Positions 1 through 14,451 of a stretch of DNA of 14,451 bases are shown in pieces (positions within the stretch are counted from its first letter, which is position 1; each line of letters begins with the position of its first letter). Source of the DNA: Conexivisphaerales archaeon. Lineage in GTDB: Archaea > Thermoproteota > Nitrososphaeria > Conexivisphaerales > DTJL01. Location: positions 1 to 14,451 of the forward strand of contig JBEKZX010000036.1 in assembly GCA_049509455.1 (NCBI GenBank), written 5' to 3'. A model generated the notes under the pieces. That model saw only the letters and a list, made by a program, of their open reading frames with translations, searched no databases and was not told the origin of the DNA. The translations under genes and the position numbers were made by a program.

Positions 1-72
1 TGGATCATATTGGCGATCATCTTCCTGATCGTGGTCACGAGCTCTACCTCGAAAAAGAAGAAGACGGCATGA
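1..72 (+). CDS. 3' end of a membrane protein gene (partial): C-terminal hydrophobic helix followed by a Lys-rich tail
   Basis: Frame +1 reads WIILAIIFLIVVTSSTSKKKKTA then TGA at 70-72. This is a hydrophobic stretch followed by a basic stop-transfer tail; the start lies outside the window. Confidence 0.5.
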   Translation, partial: WIILAIIFLIVVTSSTSKKKKTA

Positions 73-142
73 GACGGGCGAACGGTGCTTTACGGTTCAG
101 AAACAAAGCAAATAAAACGCTTTCCAGTGTAAGAGCCCGTAG

Positions 143-580
143 TTGTCGAACGCGCAGAGCGGGCTGACGATCATGAGGAGGGATCTTGATTCCATTATGC
201 GCCAGGGGAAGGCGGAGCTGCCGTCGGAATGTTGTGGCCTCATGATCGGGAGAAGAGAGGGGGAGAGATGCGTCTGCCACCACATCCGTCCCACCGGGAA
301 CGCCGACAAGTCTCCTTACAGCTTCACCATCGCACCGGAGGAACTCCTGAAAGGCTACCGTCATGCTGACGACGTGAGCATGGAACTCGTGGGGATCTAC
401 CATACCCACCCTGCCCGACCCTTCCCGTCTAGCGTCGACCTGGGGTTCATGAAATGGAGCGCACCGGTCTGGCTGATCGTCTCGAGCCTGAACTGGGCTT
501 ACGCCGCCTATGTGCTGGAGGGGGGACGGCCGGTCAAGGTCAACGTAACACTGGTCCAGCCAAGCTTTTATCGACAGTAA
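143..580 (+). CDS. JAMM/MPN+ (Mov34) family metalloprotease, desampylase/Mec-like
   Basis: Complete JAMM motif: Glu in PSECCGLMIG, then HTHP-x4-PS-x2-D (YHTHPARPFPSSVD). TTG start at 143; alternative ATG at 173. Confidence 0.9.
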   Translation: MSNAQSGLTIMRRDLDSIMRQGKAELPSECCGLMIGRREGERCVCHHIRPTGNADKSPYSFTIAPEELLKGYRHADDVSMELVGIYHTHPARPFPSSVDLGFMKWSAPVWLIVSSLNWAYAAYVLEGGRPVKVNVTLVQPSFYRQ

Positions 581-685
581 CGACCTATCCCTTGGAGGGG
601 ACCGGCTTTAGAACCTTGGTGGAACCGCAGAGACTTCAAGAAGCTTTTCGATGACCTCGATAAGGAGCCCGAAGACATTCTCGAA

Positions 686-1153
686 ATGTTCGAGAAGACG
701 TTGAAGTCGTTCGAGAAGTTCCCCGTCGATAGCGAGTTTGAAGGCTCCTTCTTCTATGGTTTTTCGATTACGCAGGGGCCGGAGGGCAAGCCAGTCATCA
801 GGGAGTTCGGGAACGTCAAGCCATCTGGCTATACCGTCGCCAGGTCGGAGGTTCGCGAGCCCATGGTGGATACCGTCTATGACCACAAACACAACGAGCT
901 GAGGGTCGTCGTCGATATGCCCGGCGTCGTCTCTGACGAAATTTCTTTCTCCGTCCGCCGGCGCGGCGTAAGCGTAAGGGCGTCAGACGGCGACCGGAGA
1001 TATGAGGCGGAGGTCCCTCTTGACGTGCCCGTGGAAAACAGGCCGCTGAGGAAGACCTTCAACAACGGCATATTGGAACTGGTCCTCAGACCCAAGCCGG
1101 AAGCACGAGGTCGGAGGGGTGCAGGGGCCAAGAAATCGAAGGCGCAGCGATAA
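686..1153 (+). CDS. hsp20: Archaeal small heat-shock protein Hsp20; the true N-terminus probably extends to about 608
   Basis: Archaeal Hsp20 signature YGFSITQGPEGKPVIREFGNVKP, and an alpha-crystallin domain with DMPGV and FNNGILEL. The frame stays open upstream with Hsp20-like EPWWNRRDFKKLFDDLDKE. Confidence 0.9.
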   Translation: MFEKTLKSFEKFPVDSEFEGSFFYGFSITQGPEGKPVIREFGNVKPSGYTVARSEVREPMVDTVYDHKHNELRVVVDMPGVVSDEISFSVRRRGVSVRASDGDRRYEAEVPLDVPVENRPLRKTFNNGILELVLRPKPEARGRRGAGAKKSKAQR

Positions 1154-1164
1154 CCTTTTTATCA
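1148..1164 (+). promoter_or_regulatory. Putative BRE/TATA of the tRNA-Tyr gene; the T-run may also terminate the hsp20 transcript
   Basis: GATAAC followed by TTTTTATC (1156-1163). Normal archaeal spacing would put the transcription start near 1184-1187, about 10-13 nt before mature position 1. Confidence 0.5.
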
Positions 1165-1205
1165 GGAGCTCAAGGAGCTTCAAACTGGTCCCGCGTCCCG
1201 CGGTA

Positions 1206-1233
1206 AGGACCTCCTTTCAGGGGGTTCCCGCAG
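1206..1233 (+). other. tRNA intron 1 (28 nt) at position 9/10 with a relaxed BHB motif
   Basis: Central helix GCGG(1200-1203)/CCGC(1228-1231); 3-nt bulges TA^A and AG^G; 8-bp intron helix 1207-1214/1220-1227 with two G-U pairs. There is no outer helix. Cutting after the second bulge nucleotide restores exactly U8-A9-G10. Confidence 0.85.
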
Positions 1234-1255
1234 GCTCAGCCTGGTAGAGCTTCCG

Positions 1256-1286
1256 ACATGGGCGGTTGCGACCGTCCGTGGGAGAT
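1256..1286 (+). other. tRNA intron 2 (31 nt) at position 30/31 with a full BHB motif
   Basis: Outer helix AG(1248-1249)/CT(1288-1289); central helix CTTC(1250-1253)/GGAG(1281-1284); bulges CG^A and AT^G; 10-bp intron helix 1257-1266/1271-1280 closing a TGCG loop. Confidence 0.9.
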
Positions 1287-1293
1287 GCTGTAG

Positions 1294-1339
1294 TGGTTGG
1301 CCCTGGCTGACCCGTCCAGCCTGCCAGGCATACACGGAA
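1294..1339 (+). other. tRNA intron 3 (46 nt) at the canonical position 37/38
   Basis: Central helix CTGT(1288-1291)/ACGG(1334-1337); bulges AG^T and AA^A. The outer helix is the anticodon stem. An internal hairpin GGCTG/CAGCC is present. Confidence 0.9.
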
Positions 1340-1418
1340 ACCGGAGTGTCGCAGGCTCAAATCCTGCCCGCGGGACCAACATAGCTCCCTAGGCTGGACC
1401 ACGATTCGAGAGCCGAGG

Positions 1419-2333
1419 TCAAAGCGCGGCCAGGACGTGGGCGGCGGCCTTGTCGGCGACCATCGCCAGGGACAGTATGAGGAGGTACAGCGCCGTGAAC
1501 TTGTAAGCCCTCCATGCCATGGCGGCCGAGTTCGTCACCATCAGGAGGTAGTCACTGAAGAGCAGGAGAGAGCCAAGGATGACCGCCACGCCAAGGTAGA
1601 CGTAGCCGAAGTAGCCGAAGGCGTAGAGGGAAAGAGAAGAAGCGACTAGAGCGACGCTGTTGATCATTATGGCCTTGGAGGTAGCCATGACGCCGGCGAC
1701 GACGGGCAGCATCGGAACGCCGGCCCCCTCGTACTGCTCGACGCCCTTTATGGCGAGCGCCCAGAAGTGGCTGGGGGTCCAGAGGAAGATGGCCATCCCG
1801 ATGAGGAAGGCTTCAAGGTTCACCGGGGCGACCGCTGTCCAGCCGGCCAAGAAGGCGAAGCTGCCGGAAGCGCCTCCGATGACTACGTTCCACGACGTCC
1901 TCCTCTTCAGAAGATAAGTGTATACAAAGGCATAGGTCACAAGCCCGGCCGCCACCATGGCCCCGCTCAATTGCGAAAGGCCGAAGAGCGCGACGCAGAC
2001 GCCGAGAGTTCCCATGACAATGCCAACGCTTAGGGCTTCCCTTGGGAGGACCTTCTTCGAGGGGATCGGGCGCGTGCTTGTCCGTTTCATCATCGCGTCG
2101 ATGTCCCTGTCGAAGTAGTTGTTCAAGGCGTTGGCCCCCGCCGTGGAGAGGAAGCCCGCCGCTGTCAAGAGGAGGATTCTGGGGGCGTCCACGGAGAGCC
2201 CTGACGCGAGAACGAGGCCGATGATGGATTCGGCCCACAGGAGGCTGAAGATCCTCAGCTTGAAGAGCGTGATGAAGGCTCTGAGCCTCTCCGATCCGGA
2301 GACCCTAGCGGCGACCGGGGCCTTAAGGGTCAA
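1419..2333 (-). CDS. cyoE: Protoheme IX farnesyltransferase (heme o synthase), UbiA family
   Basis: Motifs NNYFDRDIDAMMKRTSTRPIPS, YTYLLKRRT, GGASGSF and LWTPSHFWALAI. The probable start is TTG at 2333, overlapping the upstream TGA (TTGA), rather than the ORF-track start at 2369. Confidence 0.95.
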   Translation of the reverse strand: MTLKAPVAARVSGSERLRAFITLFKLRIFSLLWAESIIGLVLASGLSVDAPRILLLTAAGFLSTAGANALNNYFDRDIDAMMKRTSTRPIPSKKVLPREALSVGIVMGTLGVCVALFGLSQLSGAMVAAGLVTYAFVYTYLLKRRTSWNVVIGGASGSFAFLAGWTAVAPVNLEAFLIGMAIFLWTPSHFWALAIKGVEQYEGAGVPMLPVVAGVMATSKAIMINSVALVASSLSLYAFGYFGYVYLGVAVILGSLLLFSDYLLMVTNSAAMAWRAYKFTALYLLILSLAMVADKAAAHVLAAL

Positions 2334-2743
2334 TGGCCCGCCACCACGGTGATGCTGCCGACCATCCACAGATGATAGATGCAGTAGTAGCTGAACGTGC
2401 CCGTGGTGTTGAAGGTCACCGTGACCGACTGGCCGGCCAGGATGTCACCGGTGTTGAAGGATTTGTCCAACGCGGTGGCGGTGTGGACCGCAACGTCGTT
2501 GTTGTAGAACATGACGGTGCTGTTGACGCCCAGGACCAGCGTGATGTTCGCGGGCGAGAAACCCATGGATTGGTTGAAATACGCCCCGCTCACCATCACG
2601 ACGAGTACGCTGCCCGCCGGGGGCTTCGGGATGTTGCTGGCTGAGTAGAGGTGCGACGAGCCGATGTAGTCGAGGCCTCCGCCGATGCCGGCGGCCACCA
2701 GGAGGATTAGCGCGACGCCTGCTAGGGTACGGTTGACCTTCAA
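2330..2743 (-). CDS. Membrane-anchored type-1 blue copper protein (cupredoxin, plastocyanin-like), 137 aa
   Basis: N-terminal hydrophobic helix; FSPANITL strand; His in NDVAVHT; C-x2-H-x2-M loop (YCIYHLWM). The TTG start at 2743 overlaps the subunit I TGA stop. Confidence 0.88.
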   Translation of the reverse strand: MKVNRTLAGVALILLVAAGIGGGLDYIGSSHLYSASNIPKPPAGSVLVVMVSGAYFNQSMGFSPANITLVLGVNSTVMFYNNDVAVHTATALDKSFNTGDILAGQSVTVTFNTTGTFSYYCIYHLWMVGSITVVAGH

Positions 2744-4314
2744 ACGACGGGCACACCTCCAGCGGTCTCCTTCTGGGCGCGAATCACCTTGTAAAGGTTG
2801 TAGAGGAACGGAAGCTGGCCGATGCCAAGCACCAACGCGAAGACGAGCGCCAGGTCGAGCCATATGGCGTAAGTCGTCGTAAAGCCCAGCGTTTGAAGGA
2901 CCACGTTCGCCTCCCTCCTAGGCGCGCCCAGAAGGCCGAGCACCAAGAAACAGGTCGACATGCCGAAGCTGCCGATGAACGAAGCCCAAAAGTGTATCCT
3001 GCCCAGCACCTTACTGGGGAAATCGCGGTGAATGAGCAGCGGGAGGAGGAAGTAGAGGATGCCGAAGGAGGCCATCATGACCCCTGCCAGAGCGTTGAAA
3101 TGGAAGTGGGCCACAATGACGTAAGTGTTGTGCTGGTAGACGTCGAAGGCGACGGTGCCCGCCTCCTCCCCTATGAAACCGCCGATTATCCAGCCCGCGA
3201 TGCTGGCCACGATGAACATGGAGGGCGTGCTCCACCTGAACTTGCTCCTCCACATTACGGCGACCAGGGTGAAGACCGTCAGCCCAGACGCAAAGCCAAT
3301 CAGGTAGCTCATCGATTGCGAGAACAGGTTGATCCAGACCGGCTGGTTGACGTCCATGTACAGGTGATGGCTATAGACTCCTACACCGGAGACCAGGAGC
3401 AGCGGCCACGGAACTCTGGCCCAACGCTCGCTGGGAAGGGCTCTGTTGGCGAAGGTAGTCATGAGGTAGTAGTAGAGACCGATTACCATGAAGAAGGCGA
3501 AGTATACGATCGGGTGACCGTACAGCCAGAACAAGTTCTTGGCTAGGAGGGCGTTGACGTCGAAGGGAGGGGCGGTGATCTGGTAGAGGCCCAATATCTG
3601 TTCGATCATCACAGAAGGAGTGGAGAAGAGGAGGACGATGGTGGCGACCACGACACCGATGACGGGGATGGGGAGGGGTTCGAGCTTGTTCCAAGTTGAC
3701 GTAGGCATGTACGCGTCAAGGCCGATGCTCTGAATGAACCGGTAGAGGCTCGACTGAGTGTAGAACCTCTGTTGACTTGAACCGGGCATCTTGGTGGAGT
3801 AAACCGTCCTGAGCGCGACGTAGGCGAAGACTATGAATCCAACCTCGCTGCCTAGCGCCGACGCCAAGAATAGGGCCGTGGAGGCCGCTGTCCACGCGTT
3901 AGCCGAGTAGAACGGCAGGGGGTAGAGGTAGTACCAGCCAGCGGCGAACCCCATGCCGATGCTGACCAGCATCGCGTAGAAGCTGAACATGGTGATGACG
4001 CTAGCGGCTAGCGCCATCCTGTAGCTGTAGAGGGGCCTCTTCAGGAAATAGGCCAGGAGGAAGAAGGAGATACCGTAGGCGAACGGGAACTGCCAGCCTA
4101 CGAACATCCCCAAGCCGTGCGCCGTAAGAAGCTGGTAGAAGACCTGGGCTGTAGTGGCTGGGACGCCAGCCTGGTCCGTGCGCATCAACAATGCGAAGGA
4201 GCCAGCGATGATGAAGTTGATGAAGGAGATAACGATCAGGGCGAATGAGAGCCGGCGGATGTTGGCGGGAACCTCCCACTTGGTCTCCACCGACACCGCC
4301 GTCTCCTCGCCCAA
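2740..4314 (-). CDS. Heme-copper oxygen reductase subunit I, B-family (ba3-like)
   Basis: All six His ligands are present (TAHG, GHPIVY, SHH, AHFH) and the cross-link Tyr is retained. HPIVY replaces the A-family HPEVY. The helix VIII pattern ASGLTVFT matches the B-family K-channel analogue. Confidence 0.92.
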   Translation of the reverse strand: MGEETAVSVETKWEVPANIRRLSFALIVISFINFIIAGSFALLMRTDQAGVPATTAQVFYQLLTAHGLGMFVGWQFPFAYGISFFLLAYFLKRPLYSYRMALAASVITMFSFYAMLVSIGMGFAAGWYYLYPLPFYSANAWTAASTALFLASALGSEVGFIVFAYVALRTVYSTKMPGSSQQRFYTQSSLYRFIQSIGLDAYMPTSTWNKLEPLPIPVIGVVVATIVLLFSTPSVMIEQILGLYQITAPPFDVNALLAKNLFWLYGHPIVYFAFFMVIGLYYYLMTTFANRALPSERWARVPWPLLLVSGVGVYSHHLYMDVNQPVWINLFSQSMSYLIGFASGLTVFTLVAVMWRSKFRWSTPSMFIVASIAGWIIGGFIGEEAGTVAFDVYQHNTYVIVAHFHFNALAGVMMASFGILYFLLPLLIHRDFPSKVLGRIHFWASFIGSFGMSTCFLVLGLLGAPRREANVVLQTLGFTTTYAIWLDLALVFALVLGIGQLPFLYNLYKVIRAQKETAGGVPVV

Positions 4315-4872
4315 CTAGCCGCTCACCACTGTGAACGTCGTGACCATAAAGGGGTGTCCAAAGCCACAGTACTCGAGGCATCTTATCGTGTATACGCCAG
4401 GCTCCGTAAATGTGTATATGAAGTCGTTATCGTAGCCCGGCATCACCTGTTCCTGCATCAACAGAGTGCCGTTGGGGCTGTAGACCCCGAACCCATGGGT
4501 GACGTCCTTGGAGGTGACTATCCATTCGACGGGAGTGTTCGCTATGACCTTAGTGGAGTTGAGGGTCCAGCTGAACTGCTTAGCCACGACGGTGATCGCC
4601 TGGGTGGGCTGCAGCCTCCCGAAGGACAGCACGGGGATAAAGGGGAGGGTGAACGCCCAGAACCCTATGAATACGACGGCGATGGCCAGCACGTAGAGGC
4701 CCTTCTTGTGGTACCAGCCAGGCACCTTGTCGGCGTTCCTAGGATGGCGGGTGGTGTAGATGGCCCAGGCCATGAAGAACACTGCGATGCCTACGAGGAC
4801 CACGAGAAGACCTGCGAGGAAGTTGATTCCGAAGCCTACGTCTCCGGCCAGAGTGAAAACTGGTAGGGACAT
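4315..4872 (-). CDS. Heme-copper oxidase subunit II with a CuA centre, 185 aa
   Basis: Two N-terminal hydrophobic helices, DVTHGF, and an intact CuA motif CLEYCGFGHPFM. The probable start is ATG at 4872 (MSLPVF); the longer ORF runs through an AT-rich promoter region. Confidence 0.92.
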   Translation of the reverse strand: MSLPVFTLAGDVGFGINFLAGLLVVLVGIAVFFMAWAIYTTRHPRNADKVPGWYHKKGLYVLAIAVVFIGFWAFTLPFIPVLSFGRLQPTQAITVVAKQFSWTLNSTKVIANTPVEWIVTSKDVTHGFGVYSPNGTLLMQEQVMPGYDNDFIYTFTEPGVYTIRCLEYCGFGHPFMVTTFTVVSG

Positions 4873-4997
4873 TCGACCATCCGCTGAGTCTCGAGGCGAT
4901 TCATGGCTAATAAATGTGTTTGTCAGTATCCGTAAAAATTCTGATATTTGCGTTTCCTTCGTAAATCTTTTAAACAGTATTTCAATCATTAGCCATA
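4873..4997. promoter_or_regulatory. Divergent promoter region between the oxidase operon and the second cupredoxin
   Basis: The region is AT-rich. On the plus strand, CGTAAAT (BRE-like) precedes TTTTAAA at 4968-4974, 23 nt before GTG 4998 (leaderless spacing). On the minus strand, TTTATTA lies at 4914-4908. Confidence 0.6.
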
Positions 4998-5597
4998 GTG
5001 ACGGTATTGTCTAGCCAAACTACACCAATCGGTGTCTGGGTGGCGATAGGGATTTCTCTTGCGGCCCTCGTCTTTGCGATGGCGGTCTACACCGAAGTAG
5101 CGACCACGAACACCGTGACCTTACCTGCGAACATAAACCAACAGCTCACCAATATCCAGGCTTTGCTCGGCTCGTTGCCTGCCGTGAACCAGACCCCGAC
5201 GACGAGGAACGTGCTAGTCGAATGGGGGATAGACTATGCTGGGCTGGATAGCTTCTCCCCGACCTTGATCGTGGTCAACCAGGGAGACACCGTTGCTATC
5301 ACCTTCATCAGCAACGACACCGGTGACGGCCACACGTTCACTATCGACACGGGGCCCTACGACTTCCAAATCAACATTACGGCGCCAGGCCTGATGAACA
5401 CGCTCAACGGCCAGGAATTCACGACACCACCCACCAACAACTCGCCCGGCGTGAATGTGACGGGGTCCGCGGGAAGCCTGACGGGCACTGGAAGCTTCGT
5501 GGCGAGCGCGGCGGGCGTCTACGAGTACGTTTGTGTTTACCACCGCTATATGATAGGATATTTAGTGGTGCTTCCCAACTCGGCTTACTCGCCTTAG
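4998..5597 (+). CDS. Membrane-anchored type-1 blue copper protein (sulfocyanin/rusticyanin-like cupredoxin)
   Basis: N-terminal transmembrane helix; FSPTLIVVNQGDTV; His in DGHTFTI; C-x2-H-x2-M loop (YVCVYHRYM). Confidence 0.85.
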   Translation: MTVLSSQTTPIGVWVAIGISLAALVFAMAVYTEVATTNTVTLPANINQQLTNIQALLGSLPAVNQTPTTRNVLVEWGIDYAGLDSFSPTLIVVNQGDTVAITFISNDTGDGHTFTIDTGPYDFQINITAPGLMNTLNGQEFTTPPTNNSPGVNVTGSAGSLTGTGSFVASAAGVYEYVCVYHRYMIGYLVVLPNSAYSP

Positions 5598-5637
5598 GCT
5601 AGAAGCACGTCCGTGCAGCGGGCCTCTCTCGTTCGTT

Positions 5638-6039
5638 CTATTCTGCAACTGAAAGGAGGCCCTTCACGTTTCGGATGGCATCCTCCCTGTCCAAATAGGT
5701 AACGACTCTGATCGAAGGGGTGCCGGCGATGAGCCCAGAAACCCTCGAATCGGGGCGCCGGAGGCAGATGACCTTCTTCTCCTTGATCACAGCGAACTCC
5801 ACCTCCATCCCTACGCCATGGCTGGGAGTCGATATCTCGGCGACGATGGCGTCAGATGCCTCCAGGGCGTCGAAGTCGCGCTTGGCGACTTGTTCGAAGG
5901 TCAAGCCCCAGCTGGGGTCCCTATCGAGGACCCACTTGGACGTTATGCTGTGGCCTAGCTTCTCTATCACCTCAGCCAGAGCGCTCGCCAGCATTTGGTC
6001 CCTGTTATAGGCGAGCGGAACCGCGAGGTATATCTTCAT
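5638..6039 (-). CDS. Nucleoside 2-deoxyribosyltransferase / DNPH1 (Rcl)-like 2'-deoxynucleotide N-hydrolase
   Basis: MKIYLA (catalytic Tyr position), RDFDALEASDAIVAE, PSHGVGME (nucleophile Glu) and SGLIAG match the Rcl/NDT family pattern. A TATA-like TTTATAT lies on the minus strand at 6078-6072. Confidence 0.85.
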   Translation of the reverse strand: MKIYLAVPLAYNRDQMLASALAEVIEKLGHSITSKWVLDRDPSWGLTFEQVAKRDFDALEASDAIVAEISTPSHGVGMEVEFAVIKEKKVICLRRPDSRVSGLIAGTPSIRVVTYLDREDAIRNVKGLLSVAE

Positions 6040-6589
6040 GACTTTTCGCCGAAAGGGCTTCGCCTTCTCCGATATAAATGGAACATGGGAAGAATGCTCC
6101 GCGAAGGAGGGTGCTTCGACAGCGCCTCAGGACCTCTTCGGCATGGCCTACCGTGTCGTATGCCTGCCATACGTCCAGCACCACCTTCTCCTTTGAAATC
6201 AGGAAGGTGTATCGGTCAGAGAAGCCGTATGCGTTCCTCACGCCGTAGAGGGTGCTAGCTTCGCCATGTGGGTCGTGGCAGAGGGCAAGGGAGAGCCGTC
6301 TGCTGTCCTTCAGGGCTGCTGCTTCGGAAATGACCTCCGTGCTCACGCCGGCCAGCTTGACGCCCAAGGCGGCGAATTCGGCGAGGCGCCGGTCGAAGTC
6401 GACAATTTCGGCAACACAAGTGCTTCCTTGGTTGGTCGGGTAGAAGAAGAGGACCGTGGAGGAGTCCGCGTAGGGAAGCGCCAGCTCGGACGAGATTCCG
6501 CGGACGGTGATGGTGGGCGCGGCATCTCCCCTGGCGAGAGGCAACCCATCGTCGCAGCGGGCCGCGGGCCTTATACGCTCACCTGTCAT
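6005..6589 (-). CDS. BCP/PrxQ-like peroxiredoxin with an atypical active site; start uncertain (ATG 6589 or TTG 6544)
   Basis: GDAAP, VLFFYP-x6-C, GVSTE, YGV, RYTFLI and GHAEEVL follow the BCP/AhpC-TSA pattern. Confidence 0.75.
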   Translation of the reverse strand: MTGERIRPAARCDDGLPLARGDAAPTITVRGISSELALPYADSSTVLFFYPTNQGSTCVAEIVDFDRRLAEFAALGVKLAGVSTEVISEAAALKDSRRLSLALCHDPHGEASTLYGVRNAYGFSDRYTFLISKEKVVLDVWQAYDTVGHAEEVLRRCRSTLLRGAFFPCSIYIGEGEALSAKSHEDIPRGSARL

Positions 6590-6696
6590 TGACTCGGAAG
6601 TAGTTCTAAAAGACAGGCGATCGATGGAGGACGCTCGTGAGAATCGCGCAAGGCAGACGGCTGATCTCACTTGTATACCAGAACCTAGAAGGGCGG

Positions 6697-7317
6697 TCAG
6701 GAGATGACCAGGAAGACGAAGATGAGCTCGTCAAAGAGGACGTGCGAAACCAGGACGGGGAAGAGGTTTCCCAGCCTGTTGAACATATATCCCCAGAAGA
6801 GGCCACCGATGAGCGCCACCAGCATCAGGGAGGAGTTGAAGGTGGAGACGTGAATCAGAGTGTAAAGAGCGCTAGTCAACAGCAGGGCCCTGTTAGGAGA
6901 AACTGTGGTGTCTAGGTGCCGTTGGATGAACCCCCTCCAGTACAGCTCCTCAGTGGGGCCGATGGGGAAGAGCAGGGCGGCCGATATCAAAGTGATGGGC
7001 GTGCTTCCTCGGAGCTGGTACACCCAGTTGACCTGCTGTGAGAAGCCTGGGAAGCCCTTGACGATTTGAAACCCTCCCCAGAAGAAGGCGTAGATGAGCA
7101 GAGCGGATGCGACGCCTATCAGGAGGTCTTTCGCCGTGACCCTGATCTTTATAGAAGAGAATCGGATGAGCGAGAGGGAGAGGAGTATCAGCGCCGACAC
7201 CGTTAGCGTGGGCCAGAAGCCTCCGAGCACGGGGTCGTTGAAGACGAAGAACCAGAGGACGAAGGGCACTGGGAGGGTCAGCACTTCATAGCTGAGCTTC
7301 ATGGTTCTCCGCACCAA
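6697..7317 (-). CDS. CPBP (CAAX protease self-immunity/Abi) family intramembrane glutamic endopeptidase
   Basis: EE-x3-RG motif (TEELYWRG), His in LIHV, and SHVLFD, in a multi-pass hydrophobic protein. The start could be 7317, 7314 (GTG after GGAGG) or 7302. Confidence 0.9.
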   Translation of the reverse strand: MVRRTMKLSYEVLTLPVPFVLWFFVFNDPVLGGFWPTLTVSALILLSLSLIRFSSIKIRVTAKDLLIGVASALLIYAFFWGGFQIVKGFPGFSQQVNWVYQLRGSTPITLISAALLFPIGPTEELYWRGFIQRHLDTTVSPNRALLLTSALYTLIHVSTFNSSLMLVALIGGLFWGYMFNRLGNLFPVLVSHVLFDELIFVFLVIS

Positions 7318-7343
7318 GGTCCTCCGATGCAGTGTTCAATAAA

Positions 7344-8261
7344 CTATCGTGATGAAAAAATTCTCCCTGTCTTCTGGTTGTTCGCAACGGCGGTCCAGTT
7401 CTCCTCAATCGCCGCCATGAACCTCCCTCTCTCGTCCTCAGTCATCTTGGCGAACCTTCCTTGGGCCCTCAAGTAGAGTTCGATGGGCTTCCGTCTATCC
7501 TTGTTGACGAAGGGCAGGCTGGGCGTAGACAGCCTGTAAACGCCGTCTTCCACCTCGTAAACTATCCAAGAGCCGGTCTGGACGGCGAGGCGGCCCACCT
7601 CTATGGTCTTCTCCGAGGAGAACTTCCAACCCGGAGGACAGGGGGCCTGCAGATGGATGTACTTGAAACCTTGAATTCTAGCAGCCTTCCGTAGCTTCTC
7701 CACAAAGTCGAGCGGGAAAGCCAAGCTGGCCGTGGCTACGTACGGTACGTGATGCATCATCATTATGGAGGGGAGGTCCTTCTTGCCCTCCATCTTGCCG
7801 GTGACGGTGGTCGTTGTCCAGGCCCCGATGGGGGTCGAGCTGCTTCGCTGTATCCCCGTGTTCATGTAGGCCTCGTTGTCATAGCAGACGTAGATGATGT
7901 TCGCGTTCCTTTCGGCAGCCCCGCTGAGCGACGCCATGCCTATGTCCGAAGTGGCCCCGTCACCAGCCCATACCAGAACGCTGACGTCCTTGATGCCCCT
8001 CTGCTCCAGCGCCGCAGCTACGCCGGATGCGCTAGATGACGCGGCAGCGAAAGCTATGTTGAGGAGCGGCACGCGGGCTGATGTCTTGGGGAAGGCGCCC
8101 TGGATGATGGTGGCGCAGCCTGCGGGCACCACCATGATGGTCTTTGGCCCCAGCGCCTTCAGAGCGATGCGCAAGCCGATGGAAGCAGGGCAACCGTGGC
8201 ATGAGGGGTTGCCGCCCAGCCAGTATTCCTCGTTGGGAAGGTCTTTGATCTTCAATACCAT
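7344..8261 (-). CDS. porB: 2-oxoacid:ferredoxin oxidoreductase beta subunit (TPP-binding), POR/VOR family
   Basis: CHGC, AGC and PCP cluster cysteines; TPP motif GDG...DNEAYMNTGIQRS. ATG 8261 overlaps the alpha-subunit TAA stop (TAATG). Confidence 0.93.
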   Translation of the reverse strand: MVLKIKDLPNEEYWLGGNPSCHGCPASIGLRIALKALGPKTIMVVPAGCATIIQGAFPKTSARVPLLNIAFAAASSSASGVAAALEQRGIKDVSVLVWAGDGATSDIGMASLSGAAERNANIIYVCYDNEAYMNTGIQRSSSTPIGAWTTTTVTGKMEGKKDLPSIMMMHHVPYVATASLAFPLDFVEKLRKAARIQGFKYIHLQAPCPPGWKFSSEKTIEVGRLAVQTGSWIVYEVEDGVYRLSTPSLPFVNKDRRKPIELYLRAQGRFAKMTEDERGRFMAAIEENWTAVANNQKTGRIFSSR

Positions 8262-9439
8262 TACAGTATCTCCTCCCTGAGGTCGATCCATTCGTCTTGA
8301 CCCTCCTCGACCGACCTCGTGGTGACCAAGATGGCATTCTTGACGTCTTCGACAGTAATGTCTCTGCCGCCCAGCCCGGCGATGAACCCTTTGACGTGAG
8401 GGGGTCTCTTGAGCCCGTAGAGGGCGGAGGTGAGTTCCGCGCGAATAATGCCGCCGAGTCCCAGAGAGATGTCCCTATCTATTACCGCCACGCCCTTGAG
8501 GTTACCTAGGGCTGAGCGCAGAGCATCCTTGGGGAAGGGCCGTAGGACCCTGATCCTCGCCACGCCCGCGTCAATGCCCTGCGACCTCAGTTGGTCGACG
8601 GCCTCCATCGCTTCGCCCGCATGAGCCCCGGCGGCCACTACGGCATACTTGGCATCCTCCATGCGGTAGAGCTCGACTAGCCCGCCGTAGGACCTGCCGA
8701 AAGCCTTCTGGAACTTCCTGTCCACCTCGACTATCTTGCTCTCGGCCTTCTTCATCGCCTCTTCGGCGAGGTAACGGAACTCCATGTTCCATTCGGGGTA
8801 GGTCAAGTTCCCCATGGTCTTAGGCTCGTCAGTGTCTAGGAGGAAGCCTGGGACGCGATTCTTCGGGAGGAAGAAATCGACCGCCTCCTGCTCGGGGACG
8901 TCGACGGGTACGGCTGTATGCGACACGATGAAGGCGTCGAGTCCGATCATGGTCGGCAGCAGGATGTCCGGGTCCTCCGCGATCATGTAGGCTTGGATGA
9001 CGCTGTCGAGCGCCTCTTGGTTGGTTTGAACCATCAAGGTGATCCAGCCCGTGTCCCTCTGGGCTAGGATGTCCGTGTGCTCCGACCATATCCCCCACGG
9101 AGGGCCGATGGACCGCGTTATCACGGCCATGACCATGGGAAGCCGCGCATAGCCGGCCCAGAAGACCATCTCGTTCATGAACAAGAGGCCATGAGAGGAG
9201 GTCGCCGTGAAACAGCGTGCTCCGGCGGACGCCCCGCCGATGCAGGCAGCCAGGGCGCTATGCTCTGATTCGACCCTCACCAGCTTGGCCCTGAGTCTGT
9301 CGGTGTCAACCAGCTCTGACAGCTTCTCTACTACGGAGGTCTGAGGTGTGATGGGATAGGCGGAGACGAGCTCCACCCTGGAAAGCGCCGCGCCATACGC
9401 TATAGCGTAGTTCCCCGACATGACCTTGTACTTCGGCAA
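8261..9439 (-). CDS. porA: 2-oxoacid:ferredoxin oxidoreductase alpha subunit
   Basis: Motifs AYPITPQT, VESEHSA, TATSSHGL, RDTGW and GLGGRD. Confidence 0.95.
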   Translation of the reverse strand: MPKYKVMSGNYAIAYGAALSRVELVSAYPITPQTSVVEKLSELVDTDRLRAKLVRVESEHSALAACIGGASAGARCFTATSSHGLLFMNEMVFWAGYARLPMVMAVITRSIGPPWGIWSEHTDILAQRDTGWITLMVQTNQEALDSVIQAYMIAEDPDILLPTMIGLDAFIVSHTAVPVDVPEQEAVDFFLPKNRVPGFLLDTDEPKTMGNLTYPEWNMEFRYLAEEAMKKAESKIVEVDRKFQKAFGRSYGGLVELYRMEDAKYAVVAAGAHAGEAMEAVDQLRSQGIDAGVARIRVLRPFPKDALRSALGNLKGVAVIDRDISLGLGGIIRAELTSALYGLKRPPHVKGFIAGLGGRDITVEDVKNAILVTTRSVEEGQDEWIDLREEIL

Positions 9440-9442
9440 TTC

Positions 9443-9703
9443 TTATCCCTCCTTGACCATCGTTATCGCCTTGGGCGGGCACTCGTTCATGCAGATGCCG
9501 CAGCCCTTGCAGTACTGGTAGTCGATATAAACGACCTTCTCGCCGCGCAGAATAGAGCCCTCGGGGCAGTACATCCAACAGAAGAGGCAGTTGATACACT
9601 TCGCCTCGTCGAGAACGGGCCTCTCCGTCCTCCAGCTGCTGGTGTCGCCACCCGAGCCGAGCATCGGCGTCGAGAACGGGACGGCCTTAATCTTCAGTGT
9701 CAA
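9443..9703 (-). CDS. porD: 2-oxoacid:ferredoxin oxidoreductase delta subunit (2x[4Fe-4S])
   Basis: WRTERPV followed by two ferredoxin motifs, CINCLFCWMYCP and CKGCGICMNECP. Confidence 0.95.
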   Translation of the reverse strand: MTLKIKAVPFSTPMLGSGGDTSSWRTERPVLDEAKCINCLFCWMYCPEGSILRGEKVVYIDYQYCKGCGICMNECPPKAITMVKEG

Positions 9704-10266
9704 ATGGTTCTCGTCACATCCAAGAGCGCGAGATCGTAGGCCGTCCGCAGGGCGCTACAATTCTTCTCGCCCACCTCGCCCTTCCATGTGTCGGCGGTGG
9801 CCTGAAGCGCCGACTCCAACGAGGCCACACCGGTGGCCCTGATAACGGCGCCCACCATCGAAGCGTTGACGAAGGGAAAGCCGGATATCACGAGCCCATT
9901 ATCCAGAGCAATCTTCGTCGCGTCGACGGTCAGCACCCGGAACTTCCCGTCCGGAGACTCTGGGGCGTGAGAGGCGTTGAGGATGAGGAGACCGCCTTCC
10001 TTGAGTCCTGCCGTGACGTCCATGGTCTTCATCAGGTTGGACTCGAAGACGGCCACGACATCGGGGTCGCTGGACTGCCCGTGGATTAGCACGGGAGAGT
10101 CGGAGATGCGGACTGTCGCAGAGACCGTCGCTCCCCTCCTCTCAGCTCCGAAATACGGGGTGCTTTGCCCCCACTTCCCTTCGCGAAGGACGGCGTTGAC
10201 GATGAGCTCAGCGGCGGTGACGATCCCCTGACCGCCCCGCCCATAGAGCCGGATTTCAAGCAGCAA
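9700..10266 (-). CDS. porG: 2-oxoacid:ferredoxin oxidoreductase gamma subunit
   Basis: Motifs EIRLYGRGGQG, FGAERRGA, VDATKIA and NASMVGA. Confidence 0.95.
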   Translation of the reverse strand: MLLEIRLYGRGGQGIVTAAELIVNAVLREGKWGQSTPYFGAERRGATVSATVRISDSPVLIHGQSSDPDVVAVFESNLMKTMDVTAGLKEGGLLILNASHAPESPDGKFRVLTVDATKIALDNGLVISGFPFVNASMVGAVIRATGVASLESALQATADTWKGEVGEKNCSALRTAYDLALLDVTRTI

Positions 10267-10288
10267 TCCGCGTTACCTGTCCCATGAG

Positions 10289-10316
10289 GCGCTGATGGAT
10301 ATATAAGCCCTCCAGG
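10289..10316 (-). promoter_or_regulatory. TATA box of the oxidoreductase operon with an adjacent imperfect palindrome
   Basis: TTATATAT at 10296-10289 ends 22 nt before the TTG at 10266 (leaderless spacing). CCTCC-N8-GGAGG at 10299-10316 covers the BRE position. Confidence 0.6.
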
Positions 10317-10397
10317 AATCCGGAGGAATACATACGAAGCTTAGCTTGAACTGACACCACATGTCGAATTTATAGATGGGTGTCCCGCCGACCCCTG

Positions 10398-10670
10398 TCA
10401 GTGTCCGAAAGTGATCTCCGCCGGTTCGAAGTCCTGAAGCCTTCGATGATTGTACTCGTCGTAGGCGCTCAGATCGAGAAGGCCTTGGCCGCTCTGATTG
10501 AAGAAGATGGTCTTTTTCTCTCCCGTCCTCTTGCATTCCAAAGCTTCGTCGATGGCTAGCCTAATGGCATGCGAGGACTCCGGGATTGGGATGATGCCCG
10601 TGACCGATGCGAAGAGGCTTCCCGCTTCGAAGAATTCCGTCTGATGCACAGCCTTCGACTCGAGGCTAGT
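10398..10670 (-). pseudogene. trpB2: C-terminal remnant of a TrpB2 (tryptophan synthase beta-2 type) gene
   Basis: LESKAVHQTEFFEAGSLFASVTGIIPIPESSHAIRLAIDEALECKRTGEKKTIFFNQSGQGLLDLSAY matches the TrpB2 C-terminus as I recall it (PAPESxHAI...FNLSGHGLLDL). Only about 90 codons remain, and the PLP-binding Lys region is absent. Confidence 0.85.
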
Positions 10671-10712
10671 GGCGGAACAAGCATGTCGATTACATGGTGA
10701 CGTCCTCCGGCA

Positions 10713-11564
10713 TCATCCTGAAATGAGGGACCTGAACAGCAGTAGTATGTTCCTTCTCCTCTCTTTCATCCGCCTCATCCCATAAGGCAACCAGTTGGCG
10801 CCATACGGGAGGTATACGGAGAGGCGGTAGCCGTCACCGAGGAGCTTTCTTCCCAGCTCCTCTCTAACCCCTCTGAGCATCTGGAACTCGAAGCTGGAGC
10901 GGTCGCCGCCTGCAAGGGACTTCGCCTCGTCTTGGAGCTCGGCGTCATGAGTCGCGACGGCGAAGAACGCCTTCTGGGCGAAGAGCTTCTTCATCATCTC
11001 GCTATAGTTGTCCTTCACCTCCTTCTTGTCCTTGAACGCGACGGAAGCGGGCTCGTTGTAGGCGCCCTTGCAGAGCCTGATCTGTCCGCCCTCCTTGACC
11101 AGACGGTCGATATCGCCGGAGGTGCGCCGGAGGTACGCCTGTATGGCTATCCCCATTCGGTCATAGTCCTTGATCTCCTTCAGATAGAGCTCTATCGTCT
11201 GCTCGGTGTAGGGAGAGCCTTCCATGTCGACCCAGAGGTACGTGCCGGATTTCCTGGCCCGGTCCACTATCCTGTGGAGGTTCCCCTCGGCTCGCTCGAG
11301 GCCCATGGTCAGGCCCAGCTGGGTCAGCTTGACGGAAACGCAGCCGTCGACCTTGTTCCGGTCCATCTGGTCGAAGATGGAAAGGTACTCGATCATGGTC
11401 TGCTCCAGCTCCTTTTCGTCCTTGATCTCCTCTCCCAAGAAGTTGACGATGACCTTGAAACCACGGCTATTCATCTCCTTGGCGGTGGTCATGGCGTCTT
11501 CCAGATTGGCCCCCGCGATGAAATGCTTGGCGATGGGGAAGAAGAGGCTGTCAATAAGACCCAA
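10713..11564 (-). CDS. Monofunctional proline dehydrogenase (FAD-dependent)
   Basis: Motifs FIAG, LGEE, SVKLTQLG, VDMEGS, RLCKGAY, VATHD, FQMLRG, YLPYG and RRMKER. Confidence 0.95.
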   Translation of the reverse strand: MGLIDSLFFPIAKHFIAGANLEDAMTTAKEMNSRGFKVIVNFLGEEIKDEKELEQTMIEYLSIFDQMDRNKVDGCVSVKLTQLGLTMGLERAEGNLHRIVDRARKSGTYLWVDMEGSPYTEQTIELYLKEIKDYDRMGIAIQAYLRRTSGDIDRLVKEGGQIRLCKGAYNEPASVAFKDKKEVKDNYSEMMKKLFAQKAFFAVATHDAELQDEAKSLAGGDRSSFEFQMLRGVREELGRKLLGDGYRLSVYLPYGANWLPYGMRRMKERRRNILLLFRSLISG

Positions 11565-11710
11565 CTTGCTTCACTGGGTTCATCGACCTAGCTGTAGCTA
11601 GAAATACTTTGCTCGACGGAGAGAGACGAGAAGATTCTGAACGGGTTACAAGGCACTATTTAACCCAGTGACAATCCTGACAGAAATTCACGTCAACCGT
11701 TGCGCGGCGG

Positions 11711-11724
11711 GGAAAGGTTATTAT
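11711..11724 (+). promoter_or_regulatory. BRE/TATA of the Lrp/AsnC gene
   Basis: GGAAAG followed by TTATTAT (11718-11724), ending 21 nt before ATG 11746. Confidence 0.55.
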
Positions 11725-11745
11725 GGGATTTCACTGCATATTGCA

Positions 11746-12276
11746 ATGGCGACGGTGTTGGATAAGAAACACTTGGACAAGACTGAATTGGGCATCCTCC
11801 GAGTGCTTATCGACAATTCACGCGAGACCCTTTCGGCAATCTCCGAGAAGACAGAGACGCCGCTGAGCACGGTCAGGAACAAGTTCAACGGGCTTGCATC
11901 CAAGGGCGTCATAAAGGGATTCACTGCATTCTTGGACGTCAGGAAGATGGGGATGGTGGGCGCCGTCTTCCTAATCAGATGCGGGAGAAACTATGACAAG
12001 GTGGTTGACGCGGTGAAATCGCATCCCAACGTCGGGTGGGTCATGGAGCTGGTGGGGGAATACGACATCATCGGCGACGCGCTTTTCATGGAGATGGATG
12101 AGATCTCTGGCTTTAAGGAATGGCTCATGAAACACGATGGAGTCATGGACGTCAGGATGGAGGTGCTGAAGAACTGGGTATCGGCCCCCAAGTTCCCCAA
12201 GAGTCTTATCGACCAGTATCAGGATACATACTACGTCAGCCCGGCCCCGCTGGCGACGGAAGGCAAGCCTCAGTAG
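11746..12276 (+). CDS. Lrp/AsnC family transcriptional regulator
   Basis: N-terminal HTH (LDKTELGILRVLIDNSRETLSAISEKTETPLSTVRNKFNGLASKGVIKGF) and a C-terminal RAM domain (ELVGEYDII). The probable start is ATG 11746. Confidence 0.92.
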   Translation: MATVLDKKHLDKTELGILRVLIDNSRETLSAISEKTETPLSTVRNKFNGLASKGVIKGFTAFLDVRKMGMVGAVFLIRCGRNYDKVVDAVKSHPNVGWVMELVGEYDIIGDALFMEMDEISGFKEWLMKHDGVMDVRMEVLKNWVSAPKFPKSLIDQYQDTYYVSPAPLATEGKPQ

Positions 12277-12277
12277 C

Positions 12278-12658
12278 CTAGGACAGCTTACCCGTCATCA
12301 TGTAGGTCCCCAAGGCCTTAGCTACGAGCTGGCCGCTTTCGTCAGTCACTTCACATTGGACGAAGGCGAGGTGCTCACCCATCTTGTCGACCTTTGATGT
12401 CGCCGTCAGTATCCCTCTTCTGGCTGGCCGGACGAAGTCTATCTTGAACTCGACTGTGAGCAGCGGCCTCTGCGCCGCCACCAGGCAAGCAAGACCCATT
12501 GAGTTGTCCACGAGGGTGGCGATGGCGCCACCGTGTGCTAGCCCCAGCTGGTTCAAGTGCTTCTGCTCCAGCGGGAGAGTCACGACCACCTTGTCACCGA
12601 CGACGTTGTATCCCTTAAGGCCCACGAAGACAGCGAAGTTCGAAGGTTGGTCTGTCAT
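12278..12658 (-). CDS. PaaI family hotdog-fold acyl-CoA thioesterase
   Basis: NQLGLAHGGAIATLVD and TVEFKIDFVRP motifs. Confidence 0.92.
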   Translation of the reverse strand: MTDQPSNFAVFVGLKGYNVVGDKVVVTLPLEQKHLNQLGLAHGGAIATLVDNSMGLACLVAAQRPLLTVEFKIDFVRPARRGILTATSKVDKMGEHLAFVQCEVTDESGQLVAKALGTYMMTGKLS

Positions 12659-12746
12659 GAGATTACGAAGTCTTGCCCAATTAGCCTAGAATAAAAGTAT
12701 ATGCGGAATCCGATCCTCGGGTTTCGGCGCTAGCACATGAGTAACG

Positions 12747-12773
12747 TATGTGGTTCTTGAAAACCATATATAT
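12747..12773 (+). promoter_or_regulatory. Promoter of the acyl-CoA dehydrogenase/ETF operon overlapped by an inverted repeat
   Basis: GAAAAC (BRE-like) followed by ATATATAT at 12766-12773, 24 nt before ATG 12798. The inverted repeat TATGTGGTT-N6-AACCATATA spans 12747-12770. Confidence 0.6.
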
Positions 12774-12797
12774 CGTCAGGGCGCAAAAAGATGAGTC

Positions 12798-14009
12798 ATG
12801 GTATTCCCGCTGGGCGAGCTGGGGGACTACGAAATCAAGTTTAAACCAGAACACGAGATGTTCAGGAAGTTCATCAGGGAGTTCTTCGAGAAAGAGGTGG
12901 AGCCTAGAGTCTCGGAGATTGAAGAGAACGACGCGGTACCCGCCGACCTTTTGAAGAAGATGGGCGAGATGGGCTTTCAGGGAATTGCCGTCCCCCAGGA
13001 GTACGGAGGTCAGGGAGGCGACCAGATCTCCATGGCCATCTTCTCTGAAGAAGCGGGGCGCACCTACCCTGCCATAATGACGATCGTCGGCGTCAACGGG
13101 CTGTTCACCATCCCCATTCTCCTGTTCGGCACGGAAGAGCAGAAGAGGAAGTACCTCCCGCCCGTCGCTAGGGGAGAGAAGCATTCCGCCCATGCCACCA
13201 GCGAAGCAGGGGCAGGGAGCGACGTGGCCGGCGTGCAGACGAAGGCCGAGAGGCGGGGGGATAAATGGGTCCTCAACGGAAGGAAGGCTTTCATCAGTGG
13301 CGGTGACATAGCCGATTACTTCCTAGTCCTCGCTAGGACAAGCCCTCCTCCGAGCAGGAAGGAGCGCTGGAAGGGTCTCACGTTCTTCATCGTGGAGAAG
13401 GACATGCCCGGATTCTCCGTCGCTAAGAATATGAAGAAGTCAGGCCTGAAGGGGAGCTCCATCGTGGAGCTGCAGCTGGACAACGTCGAGGTCCCGGATT
13501 CCAACAGGTTGGGGGATGAAGGTGAAGGGTTCAAGATAGCCATGGAGACATTCGACCATGGAAGGATCGGGGTAGCTGCACAGGCGCTGGGGATAGCCCA
13601 AGCCGCTTTCGAGAAGAGCCTGAACTACGCTATGCAGAGGAGCACCTTCGACAGGCTGCTCATCCAGCAACAGGCCATCGACGACTACCTTGCCGAAATG
13701 CTGATGAAGCTGGTCACTTCCCGTCAGCTGGTGTATTGGGCGTCGTACCTAGCCGACTCCGGGAGGAAGGAGTACCTCATCGCCGCCTCCCTAGCAAAGG
13801 CCTACGCCACCGAAGCGGCCGAGTTCTGCGCGCTCAAGGCGATAAGCATCCATGGAGGAGTTGGGGTCGTTGTCGACTCACACATCGAGAGGATGCTGCG
13901 CGATGTTGAGATCACTAAGATATACGAAGGTTCGAATGAGATACAGCGGCTAGTCATTATCAGGCAGCTCATTAGGCAGACGATGGGCTTCGACCCGATG
14001 GGAATGTAA
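12798..14009 (+). CDS. Acyl-CoA dehydrogenase (short/medium/branched-chain type)
   Basis: TSEAGAGSD, LNGRKAFISGG, GEGFKIAM, GRIGVAAQALG and HGGVG motifs; the catalytic Glu lies in IYEGSNEIQ. Confidence 0.96.
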   Translation: MVFPLGELGDYEIKFKPEHEMFRKFIREFFEKEVEPRVSEIEENDAVPADLLKKMGEMGFQGIAVPQEYGGQGGDQISMAIFSEEAGRTYPAIMTIVGVNGLFTIPILLFGTEEQKRKYLPPVARGEKHSAHATSEAGAGSDVAGVQTKAERRGDKWVLNGRKAFISGGDIADYFLVLARTSPPPSRKERWKGLTFFIVEKDMPGFSVAKNMKKSGLKGSSIVELQLDNVEVPDSNRLGDEGEGFKIAMETFDHGRIGVAAQALGIAQAAFEKSLNYAMQRSTFDRLLIQQQAIDDYLAEMLMKLVTSRQLVYWASYLADSGRKEYLIAASLAKAYATEAAEFCALKAISIHGGVGVVVDSHIERMLRDVEITKIYEGSNEIQRLVIIRQLIRQTMGFDPMGM

Positions 14010-14041
14010 GAGTTTAGAGCTATTGGAAGGTTCCATCCCCC

Positions 14042-14451
14042 ATGCTCAACATGGCCGTCCTCGTAAAGCATGTCTACGATGAGAATCAGCTCAAGGTGGA
14101 CAGGGGGAGCGGAAAGATAAGCTTCGAAGGCGTGCCCGGTAAGATCAGCGACTTCGACCGGTGCGCCGTGGAGGCGGCCTTGGTGCTGAAGTCGGCCGGA
14201 GGCGGAAAGGTGACGTCGGTCACGTTGGGCCCGGAAGAGGCCATCAAGTCGTTGAGGGAGGTGATGGCCATGGGCGTCGACCAAACAATCTTGGTGAAGG
14301 AACAAGCGTTCAGCCGGCTGGACGTCGCGGCCACAGCCTCAGTCCTGATGAAGGCTCTGGAGAAGGCGGGCGGCTTTGACCTTCTAATTTGCGCTGAAGG
14401 CTCCGTCGATTCTTACACTTCCCTGCTCGCGCCCATGTTGGCCGAAAGGCT
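14042..14451 (+). CDS. etfB: Electron transfer flavoprotein beta subunit (EtfB/FixA), 5' part, truncated by the window end
   Basis: Not in the ORF track because it has no stop in the window. It translates as MLNMAVLVKHVYDE...ISDFDRCAVEAAL...LREVMAMGVD...FDLLICAEGSVDSYTSLLAPMLAER, the EtfB pattern, directly after the acyl-CoA dehydrogenase. Confidence 0.92.
   Translation, partial: MLNMAVLVKHVYDENQLKVDRGSGKISFEGVPGKISDFDRCAVEAALVLKSAGGGKVTSVTLGPEEAIKSLREVMAMGVDQTILVKEQAFSRLDVAATASVLMKALEKAGGFDLLICAEGSVDSYTSLLAPMLAER

Follow-up and report, generated by a model that had tools for sequence, protein, structure and literature searches.

In archaea, as many as three introns may occur in one tRNA gene, most such cases coming from Pyrobaculum and Thermofilum (PMC4033280, PMC3218864, PMC8450103). 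The multi-intron tRNAs of Thermoproteales were found with SPLITS and tRNAscan-SE (Sugahara et al. 2007, 2008, as cited in PMC4033280), and closely spaced introns may need to be removed in order (PMC8450103). In Candidatus Caldiarchaeum subterraneum introns are present in 13 of 45 tRNA genes, three of which have more than one (PMC3293823), and thaumarchaeal genomes hold 107 non-canonical introns (PMC8450103). In split and permuted tRNA precursors, it is the pairing of leader and trailer that builds the splice motif (PMC4090602, PMC3218864). The locus described here lies within a 14,451 nucleotide (nt) stretch of DNA (hereafter the window; contig JBEKZX010000036.1 of assembly GCA_049509455.1, positions 1 to 14,451, forward strand) from a Conexivisphaerales archaeon. 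Window positions 1197-1378 (+) very probably constitute a functional and apparently sole tRNA-Tyr(GUA) gene, the transcript of which would have to lose three introns of the splicing-endonuclease type to give a tRNA of 77 nt. A short 5′ leader complementary to the 3′ end of the tRNA precedes the gene.

Like the multi-intron tRNAs of Thermoproteales, this gene combines canonical and non-canonical intron positions with strict or relaxed splice motifs, has three introns for which ordered removal is predicted, and resides in a host with more than one EndA subunit. Unlike those cases, the host lineage belongs to the Nitrososphaerota (Thaumarchaeota sensu lato), the gain of the two extra introns can be placed in a single family, and the acceptor-proximal intron is paired with a dedicated leader complement. 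Nor is there a sign in this genome of intron transposition of the Thermoproteales kind; BLAST of each intron against the genome found no paralogous intron copies, only chance 12-13-mers. The host shares its phylum-level group with the Thaumarchaeota and Aigarchaeota, whose tRNA introns are found at non-canonical sites within the D, V and T arms and for which an (alpha-beta)2-type endonuclease is assumed (PMC4090602). Multi-intron tRNAs common to this genome and the thaumarchaeal and aigarchaeal reports are Thr-GGU, Leu-UAA and an anticodon-CUG tRNA; however, those reports list two-intron genes, with tRNA-Tyr not among them, and a partial literature search turned up no tRNA with three introns from this phylum. 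As a class, then, three-intron tRNAs are already known. What is distinctive here is the lineage, the three splicings required of an essential tRNA that is single-copy, an anticodon exon of 7 nt, the datable gain of two introns, and the leader. Three-intron tRNAs are thereby extended beyond the hyperthermophilic Thermoproteales, home of nearly all known cases.

When the four exons are joined in silico, ARAGORN calls the resulting 77-mer, with its encoded CCA, as tRNA-Tyr(gta) with a regular cloverleaf. The acceptor 5′ strand, the 7 nt that open the gene at 1197, pairs perfectly with 1368-1374, which is followed by A73 and the encoded CCA. Read from the spliced sequence, the tRNA carries C1-G72, A73, the anticodon GUA, G37 and a 5-nt variable loop. 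C1-G72, A73 and GUA are identity elements for archaeal tyrosyl-tRNA synthetase, and these, together with the short variable loop, are invariant among the 21 tRNA-Tyr orthologues of the order. The exons are colinear on one strand within 182 nt, so the gene is neither split nor permuted. An initial annotation, made from the letters of the window, had proposed a triple-intron tRNA-Tyr(GTA) at this site. The call of the spliced 77-mer, an independent splice-motif scan and the orthologues all agree with that proposal; re-cutting the exons returned exactly its coordinates and its intron lengths of 28, 31 and 46 nt (105 of 182 nt intronic), and the 7-nt anticodon exon was recovered at 1287-1293. Its remark that three introns in one gene are rare is also fair, three being the documented archaeal maximum (PMC4033280, PMC3218864, PMC8450103).

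Splice motifs were assigned on the standard geometry, in which a central helix of 4 base pairs (bp) is accompanied by two bulges of 3 nt and cutting follows the second base of a bulge. The central helices of all three introns are 4 bp and fully paired, and they are 100 % paired across nine three-intron genes of the family; a bulge-helix-bulge, or an accepted relaxed form of it, is found at every exon-intron boundary. For intron 1, tRNA bases 4-7 pair with CCGC of the intron, and no outer helix is present. Intron 2 has a near-strict motif in which bases 25-28 pair with GGAG and a 2 bp outer helix is formed by 23-24/32-33. For intron 3, bases 32-35 pair with ACGG, the inner side has one contiguous pair at the bulge followed by hairpins of its own, and the outer helix is the anticodon stem. 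This stem is interrupted by intron 2, and the intron 3 motif is strict only after intron 2 has been removed; additionally, bases 32-33 are needed by both motifs. The predicted motifs for introns 2 and 3 are mutually exclusive, so splicing would have to be ordered. The initial annotation had placed each intron between 3-nt bulges on a 4-bp helix. The 4-bp helices stand; the description was slightly too tidy, as the motif of intron 1 is relaxed and the three motifs cannot form together. Splice sites shifted by one base either way would turn A9 into G, break the G31-C39 pair or alter the invariant A38, and are ruled out by the orthologues. Intron 3 was also considered as a C/D or H/ACA guide RNA; no box C and no correctly placed box D were found in it.

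The gene was compared with those of nine family genomes from four genera (the window's genome among them), with 12 orthologues drawn from the order's three other families and with one class-level outgroup, L141, which comes from an AT-rich 1.62-Mb genome of another order of the class. Three introns at identical positions are present in 9 of 9 family genes. In the other three families the sole intron is at 37/38 (12 of 12 orthologues), and these genes are colinear with the predicted exon joins; since their exon sequence is uninterrupted, the intron boundaries are fixed independently of the motif rule. The outgroup gene likewise has only the 37/38 intron, with exon 2 contiguous with exon 3, and its acceptor and T stems differ in sequence from those of the window gene. 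Single-intron orthologues score 51-56 bits as tRNA with Rfam, and several differ from the spliced 77-mer at one base, T54C. These comparisons show the 37/38 intron to be ancient and homologous across the class, and the introns at 9/10 and 30/31 to be insertions gained in the ancestor of the family and retained in all nine genomes.

Covariation was assessed in the nine-sequence alignment over seven helices, namely the three central helices, the three intron hairpins and the T stem, with slid controls and 500 shuffles; the leader and the intron 1 hairpin, where the MAFFT alignment is out of register, were scored per sequence. Paired cells amount to 98.8 % in the seven helices, against 37-48 % in slid controls. 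Compensatory double changes occur in nine pairs, and 0 of 500 shuffles reach the observed values. Five pairs of the intron 2 inner hairpin have changed on both sides, and the T stem covaries in one genome. Intron 1 varies in length between 20 and 28 nt in the family; its hairpin differs in sequence, with pairing kept. Judged by colinear orthologues and by covariation, the predicted three-intron structure is far beyond chance. The result is a natural series, with an outgroup and three sister families that have one ancient intron versus a single family in which two introns and a new leader have been added. Such a series makes approachable both the fixation of a new intron in an essential single-copy tRNA gene and the problem of presenting the endonuclease with a splice motif whose formation requires the acceptor stem to be taken apart.

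Several other features of the orthologues were apparent. The 37/38 intron of the window gene and that of the outgroup have their first hairpin and a CAGCCT.C.AGGC block in common; sequence conservation this deep is unusual in a tRNA intron. The T loop is CTCAAAT, with C54 at window 1356, in all nine family genes; T54 is found in all other orthologues, and the other tRNAs of the window's genome that were inspected keep it. The tRNA-Tyr genes encode CCA in three of the order's families and lack it in the fourth (L011, L013, L109-L113 versus others). One family genome (G006) contains a second three-intron Tyr gene (L105, on G006:C13), which matches the gene of a different genus (L009, G007:C4) without a difference over 173 nt and the leader; contamination of the bin, not a true duplication, may be the cause.

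The leader, here termed the anti-acceptor element, has an 8-nt core (1187-1194) whose reverse complement matches the 3′ acceptor strand together with A73 and C74-C75 exactly; counted from 1186, perfect complementarity between leader and 3′ end reaches 10 bp in the window gene. The core is invariant in 9 of 9 three-intron genes (with a spacer of 0-2 nt) and absent from 12 of 12 single-intron orthologues. Across the four genera, the spacer and the bases flanking the leader vary while the core stays. Within the window's genome, a perfect leader:3′-end complement of 8-10 bp, ending 1-3 nt before +1, is carried by the four tRNA genes with introns between 8/9 and 10/11: Tyr (9/10), Gln-CTG (10/11), Met (8/9) and Thr-GGT (8/9). 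In each of these the central helix of the intron must use acceptor-stem bases. For the 34 other tRNA genes called by ARAGORN in this genome the complement is at most 6 bp, and mostly 2-4. The Gln(CTG) orthologues form a second series, with intron and leader both present in 8 of 8 family genes and neither present in 6 of 6 genes outside the family. In one Gln(CTG) genome the 3′ end reads A-TC for A-CC and the leader GA for GG, a compensatory change.

TATA-like boxes, read by eye, lie upstream of all Tyr orthologues and end 29-33 nt before +1 in the three-intron genes versus 22-25 nt in the single-intron genes. Going by known archaeal promoter spacing, transcription of the window gene would start at about 1185-1188, at the leader, and the single-intron orthologues may be transcribed almost leaderless. 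The extra bases between promoter and +1 in the three-intron genes are essentially the anti-acceptor element. Two other roles for the leader were rejected, namely that it supplies the outer helix of intron 1 or contributes to a second motif for cutting the 5′ end: both bulges would then fall on one strand, and the genera do not share a conserved register. The coordinates of these and the other features are collected in Table 1.

Table 1. Features of the tRNA-Tyr locus and related loci. Plain numbers are window positions; other positions are given as genome:contig:start-end, G000 being the genome of the window
Feature	Position	Strand	Description
TATA-like A/T-rich box TTTTTATC	1156-1163	+	Putative archaeal promoter, read from sequence
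5′ leader	1187-1196	+	Bases 1187-1195 are the reverse complement of 1369-1377
Exon 1	1197-1205	+	tRNA positions 1-9: acceptor 5′ strand, U8, A9
Intron 1	1206-1233 (28 nt)	+	Position 9/10; central helix 1200-1203/1228-1231; bulge UAA; inner hairpin 8-9 bp; no outer helix
Exon 2	1234-1255	+	Positions 10-30: D arm, position 26, anticodon-stem 5′ strand to G30
Intron 2	1256-1286 (31 nt)	+	Position 30/31; central helix 1250-1253/1281-1284; bulges CGA, AUG; inner hairpin 10 bp; outer helix 2 bp (1248-1249/1288-1289)
Exon 3	1287-1293 (7 nt)	+	G31, C32, U33, anticodon G34-U35-A36, G37
Intron 3	1294-1339 (46 nt)	+	Canonical position 37/38; central helix 1288-1291/1334-1337; bulges AGU, AAA; 7-bp hairpin 1295-1301/1306-1312; conserved block 1317-1329
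Exon 4	1340-1378	+	Positions 38-76: anticodon-stem 3′ strand, variable loop, T arm with C54, acceptor 3′ strand, A73, CCA at 1376-1378
tRNA-Gln(CTG)	G000:C75:45295-45444	+	21-nt intron at 10/11; 8-9 bp perfect leader complement of own 3′ end
tRNA-Met	G000:C53:29564-29700	+	Intron at 8/9; 8-9 bp perfect leader complement
tRNA-Thr(GGT)	G000:C53:53974-54100	+	Intron at 8/9; 8-9 bp perfect leader complement
tRNA-Tyr of the outgroup (L141)	G038:C1:1140060-1140330		Intron at 37/38 only
RtcB	G000:C108:22430-25716	-	995-amino-acid open frame; Pfam match split by about 1.3 kb
JAB/MPN-domain protein gene	143-580	+	
UbiA-family gene	1419-2369	-	Heme O synthase-like
Heme-copper oxidase cluster	1419-4989	-	Opened by the UbiA-family gene; includes subunits I and II

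Folding of the transcript with ViennaRNA gives different outcomes with and without the leader. In the primary transcript with the leader, the pairing probability is 1.0 for the leader helix, 0 for the acceptor stem, 1.0 for the intron 1 central helix, about 0.4 for that of intron 2 and 0 for that of intron 3. Without the leader, the acceptor stem forms at about 1.0, and the central helices of introns 1, 2 and 3 fall to 0, 0.07 and 0.03, respectively. With introns 1 and 2 removed and the leader kept, the values are 0.99 for the leader helix, 0.01 for the acceptor stem and 0.89 for the intron 3 central helix; the anticodon stem stands at about 0.93 once these two introns are gone. With the leader, the minimum-energy fold (-101.1 kcal/mol) comprises the T arm, the leader:3′-end helix and the central helix of intron 1, complete with hairpin and UAA bulge; enforcing the acceptor stem gives -92.4 kcal/mol, a cost of about 9 kcal/mol.

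These observations suggest an order of processing. Transcription would begin a few bases before the 8-10 nt leader, which copies the acceptor 5′ strand. The leader would then pair with the 3′ acceptor strand and ACC, blocking the GC-rich, near-palindromic acceptor stem. Because the leader occupies the 3′ acceptor strand, bases 4-7 would be free to pair with CCGC in intron 1, forming a bulge-helix-loop. The same conformer would display the intron 2 motif through bases 25-28 and the outer helix 23-24/32-33. The intron 3 motif, which requires bases 32-35 and an intact anticodon stem, would form only once intron 2 has gone. Removal of introns 1 and 2 would in this way recreate the ancestral single-intron precursor, to be spliced canonically, with cuts by the splicing endonuclease (two EndA paralogues), joining by RtcB and leader removal by RNase P.

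The leader may have evolved as an RNA switch acting in cis, its gain accompanying that of acceptor-proximal introns in at least four of the family's tRNAs; the intron 1 motif would be unable to form without it and, combined with the mutually exclusive introns 2 and 3, it would impose a fixed three-step cascade that reverses the order of intron gain. This reading is put forward tentatively, at somewhat less than even confidence. As in the split and permuted precursors of Nanoarchaeum, Caldivirga, Thermofilum and Cyanidioschyzon, a flanking leader would pair elsewhere in the precursor so that the endonuclease substrate can form (PMC4090602, PMC3218864). Unlike in those precursors, the leader here lies outside the bulge-helix-bulge, would not be removed by the endonuclease and would sequester the 3′ acceptor strand in cis, in a gene that is whole and in the usual order. 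No description of such a leader complement was found in a partial literature search; if the switch is real, it would be a kind of pre-tRNA processing element that has yet to be described.

A further complementarity involves the 37/38 intron. The D loop and 3′ D-stem (1239-1247) are complementary to the conserved 3′ part of this intron (1321-1329). The complement is 8-11 bp long in 21 of 21 orthologues from four families, and the outgroup carries the same conserved intron block. One lineage has changed both sides, having D loop AGCTTGGCA with intron TGCCAAGCT. This pairing would cross the anticodon stem and require an open D stem. The D-loop complement, conserved across the class and covarying, may constitute a second layer, in which the precursor adopts a programmed non-cloverleaf state.

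Candidate components of the proposed processing machinery are encoded in the genome. Two EndA paralogues are present, each with both Pfam domains. The EndA of 181 amino acids (aa) is closest to the PDB chains 3p1z_B, 3ajv_B, 2cv8_A and 2zyz_B, presumably crenarchaeal catalytic subunits. That of 269 aa has an N-terminal extension of about 100 aa and is closest to PDB 1a79, which is taken to be the Methanocaldococcus enzyme. Thaumarchaeota have been assigned alpha2-beta2 splicing endonucleases of broad specificity (PMC4090602); by analogy, an (alpha-beta)2 architecture and broad specificity are inferred for EndA here. RNase P RNA is encoded (186 bits), and two class-Ib synthetase genes are present. 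The split Pfam match of RtcB points to a probable intein. The 269-aa EndA gene is located directly downstream of RtcB, making ligase and endonuclease neighbours.

A number of points weigh against the proposed gene and its processing. The folding models are of secondary structure only, at 37 °C, and ignore tertiary contacts, proteins and growth temperature. In those models the leader helix persists (0.99) after introns 1 and 2 have been removed, which leaves the access of RNase P to the true 5′ end unexplained. The 3′ cut site of intron 1 sits in a multiloop and not in a closed 3-nt bulge, hence its relaxed bulge-helix-loop form, and two bases at this site are paired in the RNAfold structure. 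Cleavage of intron 1 would depend on a broad-specificity endonuclease that is uncharacterised in this lineage, and the 269-aa EndA resembles an alpha subunit of the Methanocaldococcus type and is not recognisable as a crenarchaeal beta subunit. The C54 of the T loop is unusual. As to the gene being the only one of its kind, the splice-motif scan described below is blind to tRNAs with an interrupted T arm or acceptor stem, and a second tRNA-Tyr may sit in DNA missing from the 140 contigs of an assembly that is 95.5 % complete.

The alternative that survives best accepts a real and triply spliced gene and denies that the leader is a splicing switch. On this view the leader could be a neutral remnant, left when the acceptor strand was duplicated in tandem as the intron arose, or another kind of signal, acting for example in transcription start, RNase P kinetics or 3′-end protection. 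Its sequence simply repeats the acceptor 5′ strand in tandem, and one Gln orthologue has a perfect 8-nt duplication. The 3′ end of tRNA-Tyr never varies, so covariation within Tyr is lacking, and a helix that survives splicing in the models is awkward for a transient one. However, a neutral relic or unrelated signal does not account easily for a core that is conserved over four genera amid variable neighbouring bases and spacer, nor for its strict association with acceptor-proximal introns in four unrelated tRNAs of the genome and in two orthologue series. The compensatory change in Gln, although a single one, and the complete dependence of the modelled intron 1 helix on the leader point in the same direction. 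A leader without a role in splicing is accordingly considered rather unlikely.

That the locus is a decaying tRNA pseudogene with insertions, the real tRNA-Tyr lying in an unassembled part of the genome, is highly improbable. Besides the incomplete assembly and the atypical C54, the failure of standard finders to recognise the gene would fit with decay: no tRNA was called in the unspliced window by ARAGORN, with or without intron mode, and no family by Rfam at gathering thresholds. Being blind to the raw DNA, both programs bear out the warning of the initial annotation that the gene could be missed. Yet the exons are invariant except for one compensated T stem, the splice helices persist across nine genomes in four genera against diverging intron loops and flanking sequence, and excising the insertions restores the orthologous sequence exactly. 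No other Tyr-like gene was seen in any of the nine family genomes, that of the window and eight more, some of which are 95-99 % complete.

The window is contig C71 of a 2.05-Mb assembly, which was searched as a whole with a SPLITS-like scan. T-arm and acceptor anchors were located, all candidate splice motifs were listed, up to two were removed, and the product was passed to ARAGORN, which may add a canonical intron. The scan returned the C71 gene with the identical three introns and no second tRNA-Tyr in the 95.5 %-complete assembly. BLAST of the exons against the genome found no second copy, only the T-arm similarity of tRNA-Phe. By the ARAGORN listing, the scan and BLAST of the exons, the gene is the only tRNA-Tyr within this assembly. 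One ARAGORN call, ‘Tyr(gta)’ at C53:5033-5122 (+), was rejected as a mis-spliced tRNA-His(GTG), having an encoded G-1, C73, a CUGUGG loop and, by the bulge rule, a 16-nt intron at 37/38; automated annotation could report a false Tyr and miss the His at this site. Because the sole tRNA-Tyr is invisible to ARAGORN and to the Rfam tRNA model, genomes of the family will seem to lack tRNA-Tyr, or will acquire a false one through the labelling of tRNA-His as Tyr. A scan call of tRNA-Arg(CCT) on C13 looks spurious, being of poor sequence and apparently within coding DNA, and was not used.

That the three-intron structure stems from faulty assembly or binning, for example a chimeric contig or collapsed repeats, is the least credible explanation, since despite the metagenome-assembled source and the family genome with two copies, one identical to the gene of another genome, the same architecture recurs in nine independently assembled genomes with lineage-specific substitutions, and the gene occupies a normal intergenic region of a 14-kb contig with coherent flanking genes.

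The tRNA-Tyr locus is located intergenically, with the end of an unannotated open reading frame at 1153 on one side and the UbiA-family gene on the other. The latter opens the heme-copper oxidase cluster, and a gene for a JAB/MPN-domain protein is located near the start of the window (Table 1). Further along, there are genes for 2-oxoacid:ferredoxin oxidoreductase subunits, proline dehydrogenase and acyl-CoA dehydrogenase. The predicted gene content of the window suggests an aerobic heterotroph.

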